DNA of 64,000 nt. Origin: an uncultured Acidobacteriota bacterium (GTDB lineage: Bacteria; Acidobacteriota; Thermoanaerobaculia; Multivoradales; UBA5704). The first letter of the stretch is position 1, and the number at the start of each line of letters is the position of its first letter. A program made the position numbers and the translations under genes. The DNA is taken from the NCBI GenBank assembly GCA_963700145.1, contig OY969474.1:2784001-2848000 (forward strand), read 5' to 3'. The notes below the pieces were generated by a model. That model was not told the DNA's origin, did not search any database, and worked only from the letters and a program-made list of their open reading frames with translations. Of this stretch, positions 7,111 through 62,923 are shown piece after piece.

Positions 7111-7671
7111 ATGCTCGACTGGCGAGAGGACGTAGACGCGGCGCTGGAGGAGGCGAAGCGGACCGACCGGCCCGTCCTGCTCGACTTCACCGCCGCCCCG
7201 CTCTGAAGCGGATGCGCTCGGCTGGAAGCCGAGGTGTATCCCGACCCGCGGGTCGAAGCGCTGATCCGCGACAACCTGGTCCCCATCCGCATCGACGTCC
7301 GCAAGAAGCCGGAGCTGATGGAGCGCTTCAACGCGCAGTGGACGCCGACCATCCTGCTCCTCGGCCCCGACGGCCGGGAGCACCACCGCATCGAAGGGTT
7401 CCTGGAGACCGGCGACTTCCTCGCCCACCTCCTGCTCGGCCTCGGCCACGTGGCGCGGGCGCGGGGGAAGTGGGACGACGCGATCGGGCGCTACGAGGAG
7501 ATCCTGGCGCGCCATCCGGACTCCGACGCGGCCCCCGCGGCCCAGTACTGGCGCGGCGTCGCGCGCTACAAGAAGACCGGCGACCCCGCCGAGCTCGGCG
7601 CCACGACCCAGGCCTTCAAGGAGCGCTACGCCGACACGCCCTGGGCGACGCGGGCGTCGGTCTGGGGGTGA
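7111..7671 (+). CDS. Thioredoxin-fold plus TPR protein, predicted selenoprotein (U32-S-G-C35)
   Basis: RBS AGGAG then ATG 7111; DFTAAPL-TGA-SGC-ARLEAEVYP continues in frame into ORF 7234..7671; cis-Pro motif WTPT; C-terminal TPR-like helices. Confidence 0.9.
7210..7241 (+). promoter_or_regulatory. Bacterial SECIS-like hairpin
   Basis: GGATGCG-CTCGGCT-[GGA]-AGCCGAG-G-TGTATCC; 17 nt lie between the TGA and the apical GG. Confidence 0.85.
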
Positions 7672-7695
7672 AGCTGCGGCTCGAGCCGTGCAGCT

Positions 7696-53260: not shown

Positions 53261-54490
53261 ATGTCCAGAACCTGGTTTGCCTTGCTGCTTCTGCTCGCTG
53301 TCGCGCCGGCCGGCGCGCAGGAGGAGGCGGTCCTCACCGAGGCGGAGCTCCTCGCCGCGGTGGGCGAGGACCACCCGGCCGCCGCCGCGCTCCTGGCGGA
53401 GCGCGAGGTGGCCGCCGCCGAGGTGGTGCGCGCCGCGCTGCTGCCCAACCCGGCCGTCGAGGTCACCCGCGAGGAGCCGGACCCGAGCGCGCGCGAGACG
53501 GCCGCCGTCGCCACCTGGACGCCGCCGTTCGGCGGGCGCCGCGCCCTGCGCCGCGAGGCGGCGGAGCGCGGGCTCGCGGCCGCCGAGGGGCGCCTCGCTG
53601 CGGGCCGGCTGCGGCTGCGGCTGGCGCTGCGCGCCGCCTACGCCGGCTGGGCGCTCGCCGCCGAGCGCCGGGACCTCGCGGCGGCGCACCTCGCCCGCGT
53701 CGGCGAGCTGGCGCGGCGGGCCCGCGCCCGCGCCGAGGCGGGGGAGATCCCCGGCCTGGCCGCCCGGCGCCTGACGCTCGAAGAGGGGCAGGCGCGCGCC
53801 GACCTCGCCCTCGCCGAGGCGGAGCTGGCCGGCCGGCGGGCGGAGGTGGCGGCTTGGCTGCCCGCGCTGTCCGCCGGCGCCCGCCCCGCCTCGCCAACCC
53901 TGCCGGCCGCCGCCGAGATCGCCCCGGCGGCCGCCCTCGCGGCGCGGGCGGACCTCCTCGCCCGCGAGCGGGAGGTCGAGCGCGCCGAGGCCTTGCGGCG
54001 GCTCGCCGGCCGCGTCGTCGATCCCCCGGCGCTCGGCCTCGGCTGGAAGCGGGTGGAGCAGGAGGGGGACGCCCACGCCGGGCCGGTCGCCTCGGTCGGC
54101 TGGACGGTGCCGCTCTTCGACCGCCGCCAGGCCGACCGCCGCGAGGCCGAGGCCCGCCTCGCCGGCGCCCGCGCCGAGCTGTCTCTGGCCCGCGCCCGCG
54201 CCGAGGCCGAGCTGGCCGGCGCGCTCGCCGCCTACGAGCGCCTGAGCCGCGAAGCCGGGGCGGCCGAAGCGGCCGCCGCCGAGACCGACGCGGTGCTGGC
54301 CGGCGCATCCGCCGCGTTCGAGCTCGGCGAGGCCGACCTGACCGACTTCCTCGACAGCCTGCGCGCGGCCCTCGCGTCGCGCACGACTTCACTCGCGTTG
54401 CGCGAGGCGGCGCTCGCCGCCGAGCGCGCCCTCGAGGCCGCCGCCGGCCGCCCCGTCGGATCGACTCCCGCACCTGGAGAGCTGCCATGA
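53261..54490 (+). CDS. TolC/CzcC-like outer-membrane efflux protein
   Basis: Signal peptide; LLPNP, TVPLFDRRQ, FELGE. Confidence 0.88.
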   Translation: MSRTWFALLLLLAVAPAGAQEEAVLTEAELLAAVGEDHPAAAALLAEREVAAAEVVRAALLPNPAVEVTREEPDPSARETAAVATWTPPFGGRRALRREAAERGLAAAEGRLAAGRLRLRLALRAAYAGWALAAERRDLAAAHLARVGELARRARARAEAGEIPGLAARRLTLEEGQARADLALAEAELAGRRAEVAAWLPALSAGARPASPTLPAAAEIAPAAALAARADLLAREREVERAEALRRLAGRVVDPPALGLGWKRVEQEGDAHAGPVASVGWTVPLFDRRQADRREAEARLAGARAELSLARARAEAELAGALAAYERLSREAGAAEAAAAETDAVLAGASAAFELGEADLTDFLDSLRAALASRTTSLALREAALAAERALEAAAGRPVGSTPAPGELP

Positions 54491-56055
54491 CCCGTGCCGC
54501 GACGCCGCTCCTTCCCCTTGCCGTCCTGGCGCTCGCCCTTCTGCCGGCTTGCCGCGACGCCGGCCCTGAGGGCGACGAGCACGCCGGCGAGGCCGAGCCC
54601 TGGTCCGTCACCGCCTGGAGCGAGCACTACGAGCTGTTCGCCGAGACCGACCCCCTGATCGCCGGCCGCGAGGCCCCGTCGCACGCCCACTTCACCGTGC
54701 TGGAGGACTTCTCGGCGCTCGACCGCGGCGCCGTCACCGGCATCCTGCGCGGCGCCGGCCGGGAGGAGACGTTCCACGCGCCCTCGCCGCTCCGCCCCGG
54801 CATCTTCCGCGTCGTCTTCCGCCCGGCGCGCGAGGGCACCTTCGACCTTGTCTTCCGCGTCGAGGAGCCGGGCCGCCGCGAAGAGATCGCCGCCGGCCGC
54901 GTGCGGGTCGGGACGGCGGAGTCGCCGGGCGGGCTGGTCGCACCGCCGCCCGGGACGCCGGCCGCCGCGGCCGCTGCCGGCGAGCCGATCGGGTTCTTGA
55001 AGGAGCAGCAGTGGCGCACGGAGTTCGCCACTGCCTGGGCCGGGACCGGCACTCTGCGGCGGACGCTGCGGGCGCCCGCCACCGTGCGGCCGGCGGCCGG
55101 CGGCGAGGTGACGCTCACCGCGCCGACCGACGGTGTCGTCAGCTCGGCGCGGTGGCCGCACGTCGGCCTCGACGCGGCGCGCGGAACGCCGCTCTTCTCG
55201 ATCGCGCCGCGCGTTCAGAGCGACCGCAGCCTCTCGGAGCTCGGCGCCGACGTGACGGCGCTCGAGGCGGAGCTGGGCGCGGCACGGGCGCGCCTCGCGC
55301 GCCTGCGGGAGCTGATCGCGGTCGAGGCGGCGAGCCGCCGCGAGGTCGAGGAGGCGGAGGCGGCGGTGCGCTCGCTCGCGGCGCACCTCGAGGGGGCCCG
55401 CCGCGGCCGCGCGGCGGTGGGCGCGGTGCGGCGGGGCGGCGCCAGCCCGGAGAGCTTCCGCATCGCCGCGCCCATTGCCGGCCGGGTGGCGGAGGTGGCG
55501 GTGAGCCCAGGACAGTTCGTAGAGGCCGGGGCGCCGCTCGCGCGTCTGGTCCAGACCTCGCCGGTCTGGCTGGAGCTAGCCCTCCAGCCGGCCCAGGCGG
55601 CGCTCCTCACCGCCGCGCCGGCGGGCCTCTACGTCCGCCGCTGGGCGGAGGAGGAGCCGTTCCCGGTCCCCGGCAGCGAGCTGCGGCTCGTGGCGCGCGC
55701 CCCGGAGGTGGACGCCGGGACCGGCATGGTGCCGCTGGTCCTCGAGGTCCGCCGCGGCGTCGACGTGCTGCGCCTCGGCAGCCGGGTCGAGGCCGAGCTG
55801 CTGCTGCCGGAGGAGCTCCGCGGCGTCGTCGTGCCGGCTTCGGCGCTGGTGGACGACGACGGGGTCGAGGTCGTCTACGTCCAGCTCGAGGGCGAGAGCT
55901 TCGACCGGCGCGAGGTGCGGATCGAGGCCCGCCAGGGCCCGCACGTCCTGGTGCGGGGGGTCGCCCCCGGCGAGCGCATCGTGACCCGCGGCGGCAATGC
56001 CATCCGCCGCAGCTCCCTCCTCGGCGCCGGTGCCGTCGAAGGCCACGTCCACTGA
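54487..56055 (+). CDS. Heavy-metal RND membrane fusion lipoprotein (CzcB/CusB-like)
   Basis: LPAC lipobox; FLKEQQW, APIAG; C-terminal GHVH. Confidence 0.9.
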   Translation: MTRAATPLLPLAVLALALLPACRDAGPEGDEHAGEAEPWSVTAWSEHYELFAETDPLIAGREAPSHAHFTVLEDFSALDRGAVTGILRGAGREETFHAPSPLRPGIFRVVFRPAREGTFDLVFRVEEPGRREEIAAGRVRVGTAESPGGLVAPPPGTPAAAAAAGEPIGFLKEQQWRTEFATAWAGTGTLRRTLRAPATVRPAAGGEVTLTAPTDGVVSSARWPHVGLDAARGTPLFSIAPRVQSDRSLSELGADVTALEAELGAARARLARLRELIAVEAASRREVEEAEAAVRSLAAHLEGARRGRAAVGAVRRGGASPESFRIAAPIAGRVAEVAVSPGQFVEAGAPLARLVQTSPVWLELALQPAQAALLTAAPAGLYVRRWAEEEPFPVPGSELRLVARAPEVDAGTGMVPLVLEVRRGVDVLRLGSRVEAELLLPEELRGVVVPASALVDDDGVEVVYVQLEGESFDRREVRIEARQGPHVLVRGVAPGERIVTRGGNAIRRSSLLGAGAVEGHVH

Positions 56056-56076
56056 TCGCCGCCGAGGAGACCCGCC

Positions 56077-59000
56077 ATGCTCGACGCCGTCATCCGCTTT
56101 TCGCTCCGCTACCGCGGCCTGATCCTGCTCGCGACCGGGCTCCTTCTGATCATCGGCTCGCTCTACGTCGTCCGCCTGCCGCTCGACATCTTCCCCGACG
56201 TCAGCGCCCCCACCGTCACCGTCGTCGCCGAGGCCCGCGGCATGGCGCCGGAGGAGGTGGAGCTGCTGGTGACCTTCCCGATCGAGTCGGTGCTCAACGG
56301 CGCCCCCGGCGTGCGCCGGGTGCGGTCGGTGTCGGCCGCCGGCATCGCGGTCGTCTGGGTGGAGTTCGGCTGGGGCGAGGACGTCTACCGCGCCCGCCAG
56401 GTGGTCTCCGAGCGCCTGCAGGGGGCGCAGCTGCCGGCGAGCGTCGATCCGCCGCAGCTCGGCCCGATCAGCTCGGTCATGGGCGAGATCACCTTCATCG
56501 CCATCACCGCGAAGACGATCTCGCCGATGGAGCTGCGCCTGCTCGCCGAGAGGGTGGTGCGGCGGACGCTGCTGTCGGTTCCGGGGATCTCGCAGGTCGT
56601 GCCGATCGGCGGCGACGTGCGCGAGTACCAGGTCGAGGCCGACCCCGTCGCCCTCGCCCAGCGCGGGATCACCGTCGACGACCTCACCGACGCCCTGGAG
56701 CGGTCGAGCCGCAGCGCCGCGGCCGGCTTCCACGTCGACCGCGGGCAGGAGTATCTCGTGCGCGGCCTCGGGCGCGCCCGCGGCGCCGCGGACCTGGCGG
56801 CGACCGTGCTGCGGGTCGACGGCGGCGTGCCGGTCAGGGTGGGGGACGTGGCCGCCGTGCGCGAGGGGGCCGAGGCCAAGCGCGGGACCGCTTCCTACAA
56901 GACCCGGCCGGCGGTCATCCTCTCCGTCCAGAAGCAGCCGGACGCCAACACCCTCTCGCTCACCCGCGAGATCGACCGCCTCCTCGCCGGCCTCGCCCGC
57001 TCGCTCCCGCCGGGAGTGACCATCGAGACCGAGAACTTCCGCCAGGCCGACTTCATCGAGGTGGCGATCGCCAACGTCGTGGCGGCGCTACGCGACGGCG
57101 CCCTCCTGGTCGTCGTAGTGCTCTTCCTCTTCCTCGGCAACCTGCGGACGACGCTGATCACGGCGCTTGCCATCCCGCTCTCGCTGGTCGCCGGCGTGCT
57201 CGTCATCTCGCTCTTCGGCCAGGGCCTCAACACGATGACGCTGGGCGGCTTGACGATCGCCATCGGCGCCCTGGTCGACGACGCGATCATCAACGTCGAG
57301 AACGTCTTCCGCCGCCTCAAGCAGGAGCGGACGCGCCCCGAGGCCGACCGGCGCCCGCCCTTCGAGACGGTCTTCCGTGCCTCCTCCGAGGTGCGGGGAC
57401 CGATCCTCTTCGCGACGCTGATCATCGTCCTGGTCTTCCTGCCGCTCTTCGTGCTCCCCGGCATGGAGGGGCGGCTGCTGCGCCCGCTCGGCTTCGCCTA
57501 CGTCGCGGCGCTCGCCGCCTCGCTCGTCGTCTCGCTCACCGTGACGCCGGTCCTCTGCTATCTCCTGCTGCCGCGCTCGAAGGTCCTCGACCGGCCCGAG
57601 CCCTGGCTGCTGCGGGCCTTCCACCGCGCCTACCGGCCCGCCCTCGCGTGGTCGCTGGCGAACCGCGGCAAGGTCGTCGCGACGACCGTCCTGGCCACGG
57701 CCGCGGCCGGCGCCGTCCTCTTCTTCGTCGGCCGCAGCTTCCTGCCGCCGTTCAACGAAGGGGCCCTCACCATCTCCGTCGTCAGCCCGCCCGGCATCAC
57801 CCTGGAGGAGAGCGACGCGCTCGGGCGGCAGGTCGAGGCGAGCCTCCTCGCCTTTCCCGAGGTCGTCTCGACCAGCCGGCGCACCGGCAGGGCCGAGAAG
57901 GACGAGCACGTTCAGGGGGTCAACGCCTCCGAGATGGAGGTGGTGCTGCGCGAGGGGCGCGAGAAGGACGAGCTGCTCGCCGAGATGCGCCAGGCGGTGT
58001 CCACGATCCCCGGCGCCCAGGTGACGTTCGGACAGCCGATCAGCCACCGCATCGACCACATGATCTCCGGCAGCAAGACCAACCTGGCGGTCAAGATCTT
58101 CGGCCCCGACCTGGCGGTCCTGCGCGGCCTGGCGGCACGGGCGCAGTCGCTCCTCTCCGGGGTCCCGGGGTTGGTGGACGTCTCCAACACCGAGCAGGCC
58201 AGCGTGCCGCAGCTCGTCGTCGACTTCGACCGCCGCGCCCTGCCGCTCCACGGCCTCACGCCGGCCGGCCTCTCGCGCTCGGTCGAGGCGCTCTTCCAGG
58301 GCACCGAGGCCGGCGAGATCGTCGAGGGGGGCGTCGTCTCGCGCGTCGTCGTCCGCCTGCCCGAGCGCCTGCGCGCCGCGCGCGAGGAGCTCGCCGCGCT
58401 GCCGGTGCCGACCCCGTCCGGCCACACCGTGCCGCTGGGCGAGGTGGCGCGCGTGCGCTTCGACTTGGGGCCCGGCCTGGTGCGGCGGGAGAACGTCGAG
58501 CGCGTGGCGATGGTCACGGCCAACATCGCCGGCGCCGACCTCACCGGGACGGTCGAGCGGGTCCGCCGCCGGCTGGACGCCGGGCTCGAGCTGCCGGCCG
58601 GCTACCGCATCGCCTACGGCGGGCAGTTCGAGGAGGCGGCGCGCAGCCTGCGTAACCTGACGACGCTGTCGGGGCTGGTGCTGCTCGGCATGTACGCCAT
58701 CCTCTTCTTCGCCTTCCGCAACCACCGCCACGCGCTGATCGTGCTCGTCAACCTGCCGCTGGCGCTGGTCGGCGGCGTCTTCGCGGTCGCCTTGGGCGGC
58801 GGCGTCCTGTCGGTCGCCTCGCTGGTCGGCTTCATCACCCTCTTCGGCATCGCCACGCGCAACGGCGTGCTGCTCGTCTCGCACTACCAGCACCTGATGG
58901 CCGAGGAGGGGCTGGGGCTCCAGGAGGCGGTGGTCCAGGGCTCGCGCGAGCGGCTCGCGCCGGTGCTGATGACGGCGCTGACCGCCGGGCTCGCCCTGAT

Positions 59001-59166
59001 CCCCCTGGTCCTCGCCGGCGGCAAGCCCGGCAACGAGATCCAGAGCCCGATGGCGCAGGTGATCCTGGGGGGCCTGCTGACCTCGACCTTCCTCAACCTC
59101 GTCCTCGTGCCGGTGCTCTTCGCGCGCTGGGGAGGGGTTCGGGCGCCGGTGGGCGAGCGGGCGTGA
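56077..59166 (+). CDS. CusA/CzcA family heavy-metal RND permease
   Basis: LPLDIFPD, LVDDAIINVEN, GRAEKDEH, ERLAPVLMTA. Confidence 0.96.
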   Translation: MLDAVIRFSLRYRGLILLATGLLLIIGSLYVVRLPLDIFPDVSAPTVTVVAEARGMAPEEVELLVTFPIESVLNGAPGVRRVRSVSAAGIAVVWVEFGWGEDVYRARQVVSERLQGAQLPASVDPPQLGPISSVMGEITFIAITAKTISPMELRLLAERVVRRTLLSVPGISQVVPIGGDVREYQVEADPVALAQRGITVDDLTDALERSSRSAAAGFHVDRGQEYLVRGLGRARGAADLAATVLRVDGGVPVRVGDVAAVREGAEAKRGTASYKTRPAVILSVQKQPDANTLSLTREIDRLLAGLARSLPPGVTIETENFRQADFIEVAIANVVAALRDGALLVVVVLFLFLGNLRTTLITALAIPLSLVAGVLVISLFGQGLNTMTLGGLTIAIGALVDDAIINVENVFRRLKQERTRPEADRRPPFETVFRASSEVRGPILFATLIIVLVFLPLFVLPGMEGRLLRPLGFAYVAALAASLVVSLTVTPVLCYLLLPRSKVLDRPEPWLLRAFHRAYRPALAWSLANRGKVVATTVLATAAAGAVLFFVGRSFLPPFNEGALTISVVSPPGITLEESDALGRQVEASLLAFPEVVSTSRRTGRAEKDEHVQGVNASEMEVVLREGREKDELLAEMRQAVSTIPGAQVTFGQPISHRIDHMISGSKTNLAVKIFGPDLAVLRGLAARAQSLLSGVPGLVDVSNTEQASVPQLVVDFDRRALPLHGLTPAGLSRSVEALFQGTEAGEIVEGGVVSRVVVRLPERLRAAREELAALPVPTPSGHTVPLGEVARVRFDLGPGLVRRENVERVAMVTANIAGADLTGTVERVRRRLDAGLELPAGYRIAYGGQFEEAARSLRNLTTLSGLVLLGMYAILFFAFRNHRHALIVLVNLPLALVGGVFAVALGGGVLSVASLVGFITLFGIATRNGVLLVSHYQHLMAEEGLGLQEAVVQGSRERLAPVLMTALTAGLALIPLVLAGGKPGNEIQSPMAQVILGGLLTSTFLNLVLVPVLFARWGGVRAPVGERA

Positions 59167-59396
59167 GGCGGCGGTTCGCTCCGGCGCTGCGCTTCCCGGC
59201 GCTCACCCGGTTCTACGACACGCTCGCGGAGCGCTTCTTCCGCGACGCGGAGCGGAAGCGGCGTCTGGTCGCCCTCGGCCCGCCGCGCGCGGGCGAGGTC
59301 GTGCTGGACGTCGGCGGCGGCGCCGAGCTGCGTGTCGAACGCACGCCGTTCGGCATTCTCGTCTACCACTGCGCGCGCCGCGGCCGAGCGGCGTAG
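59163..59396 (+). pseudogene. Internally deleted class I methyltransferase remnant
   Basis: PALRF..LTRFYD...GEVVLDVGGG is joined directly to a C-terminal-like TPFGILVY segment. Confidence 0.6.
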
Positions 59397-59435: not shown

Positions 59436-59780
59436 ATGTTCTACCGCTCTCGCCGAATCGTGCTGACCCTCGCCCTGGCTCTGTTCGCCGTCCTTCCGGT
59501 CCTGGCGGGCGGTGAAAACGGCCAGCCCACCACCACCGCGGCCGCCGCGGCCGTCGAGCACGTGACGGTCGTGTCGGGCACTTTCAACGTCGGCATGGGG
59601 GACACGTTCGACGCGGCGAAGGGGATGACGCTGCCGACAGGCACCTTCGCCTTCCTGGCGCCCGGCATGCACCACTACGCCTGGGCGAGCGGCGACACCG
59701 TCATCCAGCTCCACGGCGTCGGACCCTGGCAGATCAACTACGTGAACCCGGCCGACGACCCACGGAAGAAGACCCAGTAG
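59436..59780 (+). pseudogene. Secreted cupin with apparent internal deletion (or short variant)
   Basis: EHVTVVSGTF..GMG...HYAW...QLHGVGP...YVNPADDPR present, but the upstream HxH metal motif is missing. Confidence 0.55.
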
Positions 59781-59785
59781 CACTG

Positions 59786-60892
59786 ATGCTCCGGGCTCCC
59801 CTCCTCGCCGCGCTCCTCGGCCTGGCCGCCGCCGCGCCGGGGTGGGCGTTCGCCGACGACGCTGGCGCCGTCCTCTGGCACTTCGACACCGGCGGCTGAC
59901 TCTTCACCGCCCCCGCGGTCGCGGAGGACCTCCTCTACACCGGCGCCTGCCCCGGCAACTTCTACGCTCTCGAGCGCGCCACTGGGCGGGTGCGCTGGCA
60001 GTTCGACACCGCGCGCGGCGGCGGCCCCAAGGCGCTCTTCCACGGGCACCCGGTGGTCGCGGGCAACCTGGTCATCACTCCGTCCGACGGCCGGCCGATC
60101 TCGTCCGTCTACGCCTTCGACCGCGCCACCGGAGCGCTGCGCTGGGAGTGGCCGGCCGAGGGCGGGGTGGAGGCCGACCTCGTGCTAGCCGGCGGCCGCG
60201 TGCTCGCCCTCACCGGCACCGCCGAGCTTGCGGCGCTCGACGCGCGGACCGGCAAGGAGCTGTGGCGACTGGCCCCGGACGGCCCGCAGCCGCGGCAGGA
60301 GCTCCACAAGAGCGCGCCGGCGGCCGGGGAGGGCCGGGTGTTCTTCGAGAGCGCCGTCGGCCGCCTCTACGCCGCCGACCTCGGCACCGGCAGGGTGCTC
60401 TGGCAGCGCGACTTCGGACTCGACGTCACGACCTCGCTCCTGCTCACCAAGCGAGGCTTGTTGATCGGCCTCGCCGACGGGCGAATCGTCCGGCTCGACC
60501 CGAAGACCGGTGACGTCGAGACCGCCCTGGCGGTGGACGGCGTGCCGCGCGGCCCGCTGGTGCTCGCCGAGGGCGTTCTCCTCGTCCTGCTCGACAGGGA
60601 AGGGACGCTGCTGGCGGTGGAGGAATCGCTCGCCAAGACCCTCTGGCGGCGCGAGCAGGTGGGCAAGTGGAGCGCACCGCGGCCGACCGTGCGGGGCGAC
60701 AGCGTGCTGATGGGCACCGCGCAGGGGGAGCTCCAAGCCTACGCGCTACGCGACGGCGCGCCGCGCTGGCGTTCTGCCTTCGAGGGCGTGCTGCGCGGGA
60801 TCGGCGTCGCCGGCGACGCGCTCTACGTCGGCACCGAGGGCGGCCGCCTGTACGCCTACCGGCCCGATGCTGGCTCGCCTCGCTCTCGCTAG
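59786..60892 (+). CDS. Secreted PQQ-like/BamB-type beta-propeller with in-frame TGA at codon 38 (candidate selenoprotein)
   Basis: ATG 59786, signal peptide, LWHFDTGG-TGA-LFTAPAVAEDLLYTGACPGNFYALE continuing in frame into ORF 59990..60892 with AxDxxTG..xW repeats. Confidence 0.8.
59910..59927 (+). promoter_or_regulatory. Candidate SECIS hairpin
   Basis: CC-C-CCGC-[GGTC]-GCGG-A-GG; 17 nt lie between the TGA and the apical GG, as at 7204. Confidence 0.6.
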
Positions 60893-61177: not shown

Positions 61178-62923
61178 ATGACTCGATCTTCGGATCCATT
61201 CCCGACAGACGCCGCCGGTCTGCCCGAGGCGCGCCCCTCCGAGCCGGTCGACCTCGGCGACGGGGACCAGTTCGACCTTCGCATCGCGCCGGTGGCGAAG
61301 CAACTCGGCGGCGCGACCGTGCGGATGCTGGCCTACAACGGCTCGATTCCCGGCCCGACGCTGCGAGTGCGGCAGGGGTCGAGGCTCGTGGTCGACGTCG
61401 CCAACGAGGGCGACCTCGAAGCGACGGTGCACTGGCACGGGCTGCGCCTGGAGAACCGCTACGACGGGACGGCCGAGACGCAACCGCCGATCCCCATCGG
61501 CGGCAGCTTCACCTACGAGATCGAGTTCCCGGACCCGGGCGTCTACTGGTACCACCCGCACATCCGCGAGGACTACGGCCAGGAGATGGGCCTGTACGGC
61601 AACATCGTGGTCGTGCCGGCTGAGCCGGACTACTGGCCGCCGGTCCACCGCGAGCTCACCCTCACTCTCGACGACATCCTGCTGGAGGACGGCACGGTCG
61701 CCCCGTTCGACCGGTCGCACCCCACGTACACGGCGATGGGCCGGTTCGGCAACGTGCTGCTGGTCAACGGCGAGCCCGAGCTGGCGCTCGCGGCGCGGCA
61801 GGGCGAGGTCCTGCGGCTCTACCTGACCGACACCGCGAACACGCGGGTCTTCAACGTCGCCGTGCGCGGCGCGCGCATGAAGCGCGTCGGCGGCGACAGC
61901 GGGCACTACGAGCGGGAGGAGCTGGTCGAGAGCGTGGTGCTCGCGCCCTCGGAGCGGACCGTGGTCGACGTCCTGTTCGACCGGCCCGGCCAGGCGACCC
62001 TCGAGCACCGCACGCCCGGCCGGACGTACACGCTGGCCACGATCGCCGTGAGCGACGAGCAGGCGGAGCCGTCGCTGGCGCCGCGCTTCGCGGACCTCCG
62101 CACCAACCCCGACCTGGCGGCCGAGCGCCAGCGGATCGCGCCCTATCTCGAGGCCGCGCCGGACAAGACGCTCGCCCTGGTCGCCGAAATGGACATGGGC
62201 GCGCCGGAGCTGCCGGCGGGCGCGGCGGTCGAGTACTACTGCCCCATGCACGCGGAGGTGGTCAGCGCCGAGCCGGGCCGGTGTCCGAAGTGCCACATGA
62301 AGCTGCTCCCCCGCGAGGCCGCGGCACCGGCATACGCGTGCCCGATGCATCCCGAGGTGCGGAGCGCCGAGCCCGATCGCTGCCCCAAGTGCGGCATGAA
62401 GCTGGTGCCGGCGCAGCTCGTGCCCGAGCCCGGGCACGGCGAGCACCAGCACGGGCCTTCCCACGGCGATGACGGCGGGCACCCGCACGAGCACGACGGG
62501 GACCAGGCGCCCGAGCACCTCGGCATCGAGTGGGAGGACGACATGGTCGAGGTAAACCGCATGACCACCCCGGCCAACATGCGCTGGAAGCTGATCGACC
62601 GGGCGACGGGCGCCGAGGGCGCGGCGATCGACTGGCGGTTCCGCGTCGGCGAGCGGGTGAAGATCCGGCTGGTCAACGAGATGGACTCGGATCACCCGAT
62701 GCACCATCCCTTCCACCTCCACGGGGCGGGGCGTTTCCTGGTCCTCGCCCGCGACGGAGCCCTCGAGCCCAACCTCGTCTGGAAGGACACGGTCCTGGTG
62801 CGCACCGGCCAGACGGTGGACATCCTCCTCGAGGTCACCAACCCCGGCGTGTGGATGGCGCACTGCCACATCGCCGAGCACCACGAGAGCGGGATGATGT
62901 TCTGCTTCCTCGTCGAGCCGTAG
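61178..62923 (+). CDS. Three-domain multicopper oxidase with two inserted YxCPMH heavy-metal-binding domains
   Basis: HWHG, WYHPH, HPFHLHG, HCHIAEHHESGMM; two YxCPMH...CPKC repeats; no signal peptide. Confidence 0.93.
   Translation: MTRSSDPFPTDAAGLPEARPSEPVDLGDGDQFDLRIAPVAKQLGGATVRMLAYNGSIPGPTLRVRQGSRLVVDVANEGDLEATVHWHGLRLENRYDGTAETQPPIPIGGSFTYEIEFPDPGVYWYHPHIREDYGQEMGLYGNIVVVPAEPDYWPPVHRELTLTLDDILLEDGTVAPFDRSHPTYTAMGRFGNVLLVNGEPELALAARQGEVLRLYLTDTANTRVFNVAVRGARMKRVGGDSGHYEREELVESVVLAPSERTVVDVLFDRPGQATLEHRTPGRTYTLATIAVSDEQAEPSLAPRFADLRTNPDLAAERQRIAPYLEAAPDKTLALVAEMDMGAPELPAGAAVEYYCPMHAEVVSAEPGRCPKCHMKLLPREAAAPAYACPMHPEVRSAEPDRCPKCGMKLVPAQLVPEPGHGEHQHGPSHGDDGGHPHEHDGDQAPEHLGIEWEDDMVEVNRMTTPANMRWKLIDRATGAEGAAIDWRFRVGERVKIRLVNEMDSDHPMHHPFHLHGAGRFLVLARDGALEPNLVWKDTVLVRTGQTVDILLEVTNPGVWMAHCHIAEHHESGMMFCFLVEP

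Follow-up and report, generated by a model that had tools for sequence, protein, structure and literature searches.

A candidate selenocysteine-containing beta-propeller protein encoded beside metal-handling genes in an uncultured Acidobacteriota bacterium

We analysed a 64,000-nucleotide stretch of the genome of an uncultured Acidobacteriota bacterium (GenBank assembly GCA_963700145.1, contig OY969474.1, positions 2,784,001 to 2,848,000 of the forward strand), hereafter the window, and focused on a gene at positions 59,786 to 60,892 that would encode an exported beta-propeller protein with selenocysteine (Sec) at an in-frame TGA codon. The features of this gene are as follows, in window coordinates:

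59786..60892, + strand: complete propeller gene, from ATG at 59786 to TAG at 60890-60892, 368 codons including the proposed Sec38
59786..59854, + strand: N-terminal signal peptide, residues 1-23, a hydrophobic core followed by A-F-A, with the cleavage site placed by eye
59867..59887, + strand: closing ("velcro") strand of blade 8, residues 28-34 (VLWHFDT) in the structural model, W31 invariant in 23/23 orthologs
59897..59899, + strand: in-frame TGA, proposed Sec38, aligned with TGA in 32/32 sequences and with Cys in the relatives P0207 and P0218
59910..59927, + strand: Sec insertion sequence (SECIS)-like hairpin, a seven-pair stem with one C.A mismatch in the window copy, loop at 59917-59920
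59948..59950, + strand: Cys55 (TGC), proposed partner of Sec38, TGY in 32/32 sequences, in the B-C loop of blade 1 in the model
60041..60043, + strand: His86 (FHG motif), in the loop 75-89 leading from strand D of blade 1 to strand A of blade 2, invariant in 23/23
60086..60088, + strand: Asp101, invariant in 23/23, flanked by strands 95-99 and 105-112 of blade 2 (B-C loop)
60794..60796, + strand: Arg337 (RGxG motif), at the start of blade 8 (strand 336-342), which neighbours blade 1, conserved in at least 90% of the aligned intact orthologs

An earlier reading of the window from its letters and open reading frames (ORFs), referred to here as the sequence-only reading, had described this gene as one frame that the ORF caller splits at a single TGA and whose product holds only one Cys, and we found the same. 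The frame contains one internal stop, the TGA at codon 38 (in the context WHFDTGG-TGA-LFTAP...YTGAC-PG), Cys55 is the sole Cys of the read-through protein, and the plain ORF list holds only a 300-aa piece of the gene with its start at 59990. The GC content at third codon positions (GC3), 0.95 in the 37 codons upstream of the TGA and 0.93 across the complete gene, makes the parts on either side of the TGA look coding in a single frame. A hydrophobic N-terminus precedes the TGA in all 23 aligned orthologs; the window copy, judged by its residues, has a signal peptide that lacks a lipobox Cys, and the protein is probably exported by this route. A global reassignment of TGA was rejected, as TGA ends 8 of the 15 long high-GC3 ORFs of the window as well as several of the orthologs. 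Scans of the whole window returned no Rfam match at the gathering threshold and no tRNA with ARAGORN.

To follow the TGA through related genomes, we began with a first search of 41 genomes, in which every strong match contained one TGA, preceded in translation by W-x-x-D-T-x-G and followed by a Cys 17 residues on. A profile built from six orthologs (A1) was then searched over 300 genomes of the order and matched 28 of them at E <= 1e-30. True orthologs are present in 24 of the 300 (spread over 7 of 12 families), all with TGA at the codon-38 column, and weak matches lacking the TGA were confined to G211, G224, G063 and G133. Judging by their sequences, we treated these four as paralogs: the three that were checked (G211, G224 and G133, with E-values of 1e-31 to 1e-37 and 23-25% identity) show Tyr or Ala where Sec would stand and were rejected as orthologs. 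Also rejected were two loci with a Cys pattern at the Sec position that came from a search of genome contigs (L051 and L052), which are distant kinase-fused propellers carrying the motif in a later blade. In a phylum-wide sample of 401 genomes, seven more public genomes carry the TGA (G618, G332, G494, G406 with two copies, G382, G627 and G368); one other genome, G322, has both TGA and Cys and, being unpublished, was kept out of all counts and alignments.

These sequences were assembled into an ungapped DNA alignment (A2; 32 sequences from 31 public genomes), in which columns 10-12 are TGA and columns 61-63 are a Cys codon (TGC or TGT) in 32/32, and into a protein alignment of the 23 intact orthologs (A3), which are 28-86% identical to the window protein. 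Invariant in the latter are W31, G37, U38, P43, V45, C55, G57, G67, W71, H86, D101, Y109 and further Gly and Trp residues, and with invariant positions on both sides conservation passes through the TGA. The sequence-only reading had allowed for a nonsense mutation, an explanation refuted by the conservation of this column across the orthologs: TGA, Cys and hairpin stand at the same columns in 32/32. Some copies do look damaged, namely those of G002 (a frameshift), G273 (an internal stop) and G494 (a second TGA at a Trp column). We also observed a second propeller copy in G034 (L046/L081, C5:223623-224282), probably a pseudogene: its stop at the Sec column is retained, but neither a signal peptide nor a first strand can be recognised upstream. 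At two further loci, L061 (G144) and L099 (G618), the frame stays open well beyond the usual end of the propeller, reaching totals of 500 and 637 codons, which could reflect C-terminal extensions or lost stops.

The host genome, a single contig of 5.46 Mb, was searched for Sec machinery, as the sequence-only reading had suggested, and it contains selD (339 bits), selA (443 bits), selB (362 bits) and tRNA-Sec (70 bits), all above the curated cut-offs. Across the order, co-occurrence of the propeller gene with selA is uninformative because 275 of the 300 genomes have selA; a selA match is missing in 3 of the 24 ortholog carriers (82-91% complete).

Database relatives were retrieved in two ways. 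The 16 nearest proteins in a collection of 5.8 billion are all N-terminally shortened (258-331 aa). Using A3 as a profile against 1.84 billion cluster representatives, we took the best 150 matches, of which 64 are shorter than 700 aa (the short relatives), the rest being giant multi-propeller proteins that score by summation. Sixty-one of the 64 listed short relatives begin at or after the Sec column, 20 of them exactly at codon 39: gene callers shorten nearly all database copies at the Sec codon. P0207 and P0218, by contrast, are full length, share 36% and 35% identity with the window protein from end to end, and have Cys both at the Sec column and 17 positions on; among the 64 short relatives they are the only two cluster representatives with Cys at the Sec column. 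Full-length P0249 carries Ala and Val at the Sec and Cys columns, respectively, and an ortholog from an unpublished genome (G448), on which this observation rests, has Ala at both. Within the best-150 list, the Cys55 column is Cys in 57 of the 58 relatives that cover it, and the exception also lacks Sec or Cys at position 38. The pattern that the sequence-only reading had put forward as a check, TGA alternating with Cys and covarying with the Cys of the GxC motif, is what the Cys+Cys pair of P0207 and P0218 and the Ala+Val pair of P0249 display. The other loop residues are kept as well in the 64 short relatives listed (F85 in 64, H86 in 64, D101 in 63 and R337 in 60).

Downstream of the TGA, the hairpin described in the sequence-only reading, with a GGUC loop 17 nt from the TGA and the same spacing as at the thioredoxin TGA at 7204, was recovered. 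Its stem pairs CCCCCGC (59910-59916) with GCGGAGG (59921-59927) around the loop GGTC (59917-59920), and the distance from TGA to GG is exactly 17 nt. When the seven-pair helix was laid over A2, 87.9% of the cells held standard pairs, and at four of the seven pairs both partners vary (22 cells). Covariation scored 0.283 in the real alignment and 0.123 when shuffled, with 0 of 500 shuffles reaching 0.283, and slid controls in which the partner was shifted by 1-3 columns gave pairing of 42-66%. Pair 24-39 is formed between two third codon positions, those of codon 42 and of codon 47 (mostly Gly), where changes are silent in nearly all sequences, and occurs as CG (13), GC (4), UA (4), GU (2), UG (2) and AU (1); at pair 28-35, nine sequences have A-U in place of G-C, and the protein changes there from Ala-Val-Ala to Thr-Val-Val. 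L058, L103, L104 and L108 were scored as unpaired because the register with a 4-nt loop cannot form in them, and when folded alone they give the stem with loops of 3 or 5 nt. Folded alone, the element has a free energy of -9.3 kcal/mol in the window, with a median of -12.5 over the alignment and values of -7.5 or lower in 30/32. The sequence-only reading had likened the element to the Escherichia coli fdhF SECIS, whose apical loop it gave as GGUC at a similar distance. The bacterial SECIS (bSECIS) consensus in the Fig. 2 legend of PMC13188914 gives a loop of 3-9 nt with G in the first two loop positions, a stem of 4-16 bp, a minimum free energy (MFE) of at most -7.5 kcal/mol and a distance of 16-37 nt from the UGA; the window element, with its 4-nt GGUC loop, stem of 4+2 pairs, 17-nt spacing and -9.3 kcal/mol, lies within this description. 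It resembles the fdhF-type SECIS, in the terms of that same legend, in its short upper stem, its apical loop starting with G and then G/U and a spacing in the 16-37 nt range (PMC13188914), and differs in that a bulged U or long lower stem is not evident in the propeller family.

The protein matches Pfam PQQ_2 (PF13360) at E 9e-42, with 143.7 bits against a gathering threshold of 27.6. AlphaFold2 run on A3 gave a model with a mean predicted local distance difference test score (pLDDT) of 90.4 and a predicted template modelling score (pTM) of 0.87, comprising eight four-stranded blades and, at low confidence, a helix at residues 5-15 in the signal peptide region; the protein is thus predicted to be an eight-bladed PQQ_2/BamB-like propeller. 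Strand 28-34, encoded upstream of the TGA, completes blade 8, so that the two halves must be one protein. Residue 38 falls in the loop 35-43 that leads into strand A of blade 1 (a D-to-A loop) and residue 55 in the B-C turn 54-57 of the same blade. In beta-propellers the D-to-A and B-C loops share one face. The model accordingly agrees with the sequence-only reading in placing U38 and C55 on loops of the same face, His86 and Asp101 are predicted to join them there, Arg337 probably lies there too, and Sec38 and Cys55 may be in physical contact. In a Foldseek search, BamB structures came first (TM-score 0.78-0.85 at about 20% identity), followed by designed eight-bladed propellers, and tetrathionate hydrolase (PDB 6l8a and 7cqy) was matched at TM-scores of 0.76-0.77.

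Among known proteins, BamB (YfgL) is the closest in structure, being likewise an exported eight-bladed PQQ_2-type propeller of similar size. Unlike the window protein it has no Sec, and the window protein lacks the lipobox Cys; furthermore, the window family occurs in only the 24 of 300 order genomes given above and has an invariant Sec/Cys/His/Asp set in the loops of one face. The BamB models scored the window protein well below their cut-offs (TIGR03300, 157.1 against 285.2 bits; NF008351, 94.7 against 423), and a six-frame search of the host genome (G000) for a canonical BamB (TIGR03300, E <= 1e-20) found none. PQQ-dependent alcohol and glucose dehydrogenases belong to the same propeller superfamily (Pfam PQQ, E 4e-15), but the mature window protein has about 330 residues as against about 600, and their models scored it low (TIGR03075, 70 against 480 bits; TIGR03074, 30.5 against 833). 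The tetrathionate hydrolase of Acidithiobacillus ferrooxidans, which works on a sulfur compound without a cofactor, is an eight-bladed propeller as well and differs in its low identity (16-18%) and in having no Sec; it presumably relies on an Asp in catalysis, as the title of the PDB entry of a D325N mutant hints. That match shows only that such propellers can be enzymes.

Two other probable selenoprotein genes were observed in the same genome. The window gene at 7112-7690 (+ strand), with one TGA at 7204-7206, encodes a thioredoxin-fold protein with a U-S-G-C motif, has a long hairpin (-21 kcal/mol over 45 nt) with GG 17 nt past the TGA, and looks like an ordinary UxxC thiol-type selenoprotein gene. 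The host selD (L001, C1:3788741-3789661) is a selenoprotein gene too: its frame contains a TGA, and a long hairpin comes directly after that codon. The propeller gene shares with UxxC/CxxU thiol selenoproteins such as that at 7204 the order of UGA and hairpin, the 17-nt spacing to GG, the presence of a Cys partner and the existence of Cys-form homologs. It differs in that its partner Cys lies 17 residues off in another loop, whereas in the thiol type it sits in the CxxC-like turn of the thioredoxin fold, and in its far shorter hairpin (about -9 kcal/mol, where the elements of the thioredoxin-like gene and selD reach -21 to -28).

To place the protein among recorded selenoproteins, we compared several inventories. 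Table 1 of PMC13188914, a 2026 review, covers 119 prokaryotic selenoprotein families or subfamilies, and the whole table holds no propeller, PQQ or BamB-like entry. A scan of NCBIfam (June 2026) gave only generic propeller models, all below their cut-offs, and no selenoprotein-specific match. The main texts and accessible supplements of deep-Sep (PMC12013277) and BSepDB (PMC13326102), including one BSepDB supplement in part, contain no relevant mention of a propeller, BamB or PQQ, and in full-text searches outside subscription journals we found no paper on a Sec-containing propeller protein. Within the inventories compared, this would be the first selenoprotein with a propeller fold. As described in the body of PMC13188914, most characterised prokaryotic selenoproteins have a thioredoxin-like fold and most uncharacterised ones are taken as redox proteins, and its Table 1 has UxxC and CxxU as the commonest Sec-related motifs and several families that handle metals.

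The sequence-only reading had placed the gene between a metal RND (resistance-nodulation-division) pump and a copper oxidase, and these neighbours were identified as follows:

53333..59166, + strand: heavy-metal efflux operon (tblastn, Pfam ACR_tran, NCBIfam TIGR00914)
~53333-54367, + strand: outer-membrane factor of the efflux operon
~54556-56052, + strand: CusB-like adaptor of the efflux operon
56077-59166, + strand: CusA/CzcA-family RND pump (TIGR00914, 771 bits against a cut-off of 701)
59436..59780, + strand: shortened secreted Cupin_7/DUF4437 copy of 114 aa (full-length form 150-165 aa)
61178..62923, + strand: multicopper oxidase with two heavy-metal-binding (HMBD) stretches (Pfam Cu-oxidase_3, Cu-oxidase_2, HMBD)

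The HMBD stretches of the multicopper oxidase lie between its cupredoxin domains, and its CueO/CopA-like NCBIfam matches are below their cut-offs. Both genes just upstream of the propeller gene had been described as decayed. This applies to one of them, the 114-aa ORF, a cupin shortened by about 50 residues, the His-rich first cupin motif among them. The 77-aa ORF between pump and cupin (59163-59396, + strand), possibly a fragment of a gene, had no Pfam match at E <= 0.001. A search with the small neighbouring ORF against solved structures gave nothing significant (best E 0.27). The cupin adjoins the propeller gene in its full-length form in G002, G332, G406 and G494, and this form, 65-85% identical across distant genomes, is far more conserved than the propeller beside it.

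We then compared 28 loci, the window and 27 further stretches with up to 7 kb on each side. The recurrent neighbours were a CusA/CzcA-type RND pump (6/28), the secreted cupin (5/28) and a fatty-acid-hydroxylase-family membrane protein (4/28), with at least one of them present at 11/28. The pumps (window, G001, G053, G177, G273 and G627) fall into two types with a mutual identity of only 32%, and the four that were scored are all above the TIGR00914 cut-off. As the host genome has only four CusA/CzcA-type pumps in its 5.46 Mb, adjacency by chance would be expected at roughly 1% per locus; the pump-bearing genomes are partly related, so that this estimate overstates the signal. The hydroxylase-family protein (at L084, L091, L098 and L119) has OlsE, an ornithine-lipid hydroxylase, as a weak best NCBIfam match, and in G001 and G009 its gene lies directly downstream of the propeller gene on the same strand.

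From the comparisons of sequence set out above, we read the gene as a genuine selenoprotein gene whose TGA38 is translated as Sec, with a probability of about 95%. That Sec38 and Cys55 form a functional pair is in our view very likely, and that the chemistry of this pair is redox chemistry rather than metal binding we hold at even odds. The ribosome would read UGA38 as Sec, directed by the hairpin 17 nt downstream and by SelA, SelB, SelD and tRNA-Sec, and the product would be exported by its signal peptide and fold as a cofactor-less eight-bladed propeller, its ring closed by the strand encoded upstream of the UGA. Sec38 might then act as the attacking residue of an envelope oxidoreductase. 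The substrate, which could be a peroxide, a sulfoxide or an oxidised compound of sulfur or selenium, would oxidise Sec38, and Cys55 would then resolve the oxidised Sec38 by forming a selenenyl-sulfide, at a site tuned by His, Asp and Arg. The role of such an enzyme would be envelope stress defence, often beside heavy-metal efflux. Three points incline us to redox chemistry: pairing of Sec with Cys in a motif is standard among the known families listed in PMC13188914, that review takes most uncharacterised selenoproteins for redox proteins, and the conserved Arg337 suits substrate activation better than metal ligation.

Several observations weigh against this interpretation. As the sequence-only reading had already remarked, the stem in the window is short, and it includes the C.A mismatch; the MFE fold of the 60 nt after the TGA in the window favours a competing hairpin, and RNAalifold by itself predicts 3 of the 7 pairs. 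The shuffle control ignores kinship, so that related unstructured sequences can beat it, and the hairpin structure was derived from the very sequences used to score it. Much longer stems, as noted above, follow the TGA codons of selD and the thioredoxin-like gene in this genome. Gene context is not conserved, 17 of the 28 loci having no recurrent neighbour, and no thioredoxin-like reductant was seen among the neighbours scanned. Where there is a contextual signal, it points to metals over redox partners, and Sec, Cys, His and Asp plausibly also make up a set of metal ligands.

These last points lead to the strongest competing explanation, in which the gene is just as genuine a selenoprotein gene and Sec38 and Cys55, together with His86 and Asp101, form a soft-metal site for Cu(I), Ag(I), Hg(II) or Cd(II), the propeller being a periplasmic metal trap, chaperone or sensor for CusA/CzcA-type pumps. 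We consider this possible, at well under even odds. It has better contextual support than the redox reading: a pump of one or other of the two divergent types lies within 7 kb at 6/28 loci against the rough chance expectation of about 1% per locus, the four pumps scored all pass TIGR00914, the secreted cupin, a metal-binding fold, adjoins at 5/28, the window locus also has the multicopper oxidase with its HMBD stretches, and the metal-handling families of Table 1 in PMC13188914 offer precedents. Yet 17 of the 28 loci have neither pump nor cupin nor hydroxylase, the relatedness of the six pump genomes inflates the chance comparison, and the conserved Arg337 is unfit for such a site, not being a usual soft-metal ligand. 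Two general considerations tell in the same direction: exported Cu(I)-binding proteins mostly use Met and His, and a Sec-Cys pair outside the cytoplasm would tend to oxidise.

It is unlikely that the protein, while a genuine selenoprotein, is non-catalytic and serves as a BamB-like envelope scaffold in which Sec38 is reversibly linked to a partner or to Cys55 as a redox switch. The BamB chains that head the structural matches at TM-scores of about 0.8, the lack of a canonical BamB (TIGR03300) in the genome at E <= 1e-20 and a Cys directly after the signal peptide in some orthologs, as in lipoproteins, would suit such a role, but a core envelope factor would not be restricted to 24 of the 300 order genomes, the score of 157 bits falls far short of the BamB cut-off of 285, and invariant polar residues clustered in the loops of one face look like an active site. 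Least probable of all, and very improbable to us, is that the TGA is a plain stop, with the gene either a pseudogene at a locus undergoing decay or one whose true start lies downstream of the TGA. The shortened cupin next door, the damaged orthologs of G002, G273 and G494, the second G034 copy without its N-terminus, the use of TGA to end 8 of 15 long ORFs in the window and the starts that gene callers set at or after the TGA codon in 61 of the 64 listed short relatives could all be taken that way. On the other side stand the retention of the TGA column in 32/32, the conserved protein and signal peptide upstream of it in 23/23 orthologs, the codon 39 of the window copy and of 12 more among the 32 sequences, which is CTC or ATC and so cannot serve as a start, the upstream strand that completes blade 8 in the model, and the Cys that replaces the TGA in two full-length relatives.

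If the reading as an envelope selenoprotein is right, a Sec and a partner Cys held in separate propeller loops would be a new structural setting for selenium chemistry, outside the cytoplasm. A broader and more doubtful extension, which we offer tentatively, is that the family is a widespread unrecognised class of exported selenoenzymes: cofactor-less PQQ-like propellers with a Sec/Cys/His/Asp/Arg pocket on the top face, where quinoproteins hold PQQ, that might carry out a new reaction in the cell envelope under copper or heavy-metal stress, for example the capture or redox conversion of soft metals or chalcogen compounds, with Sec as both ligand and redox centre, away from the known thioredoxin-fold and molybdopterin settings. 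The family is large, since the 150 best profile matches include at least 61 of its clusters at 50% identity, and almost all database copies lack the signal peptide, the first strand and the Sec, so that their gene models need correction; a profile spanning the TGA would mend them. As the gene recurs next to CusA/CzcA pumps, the secreted cupin and the membrane hydroxylase, its context would tie the use of selenium to metal or envelope stress in soil-type bacteria, a link that can be tested.

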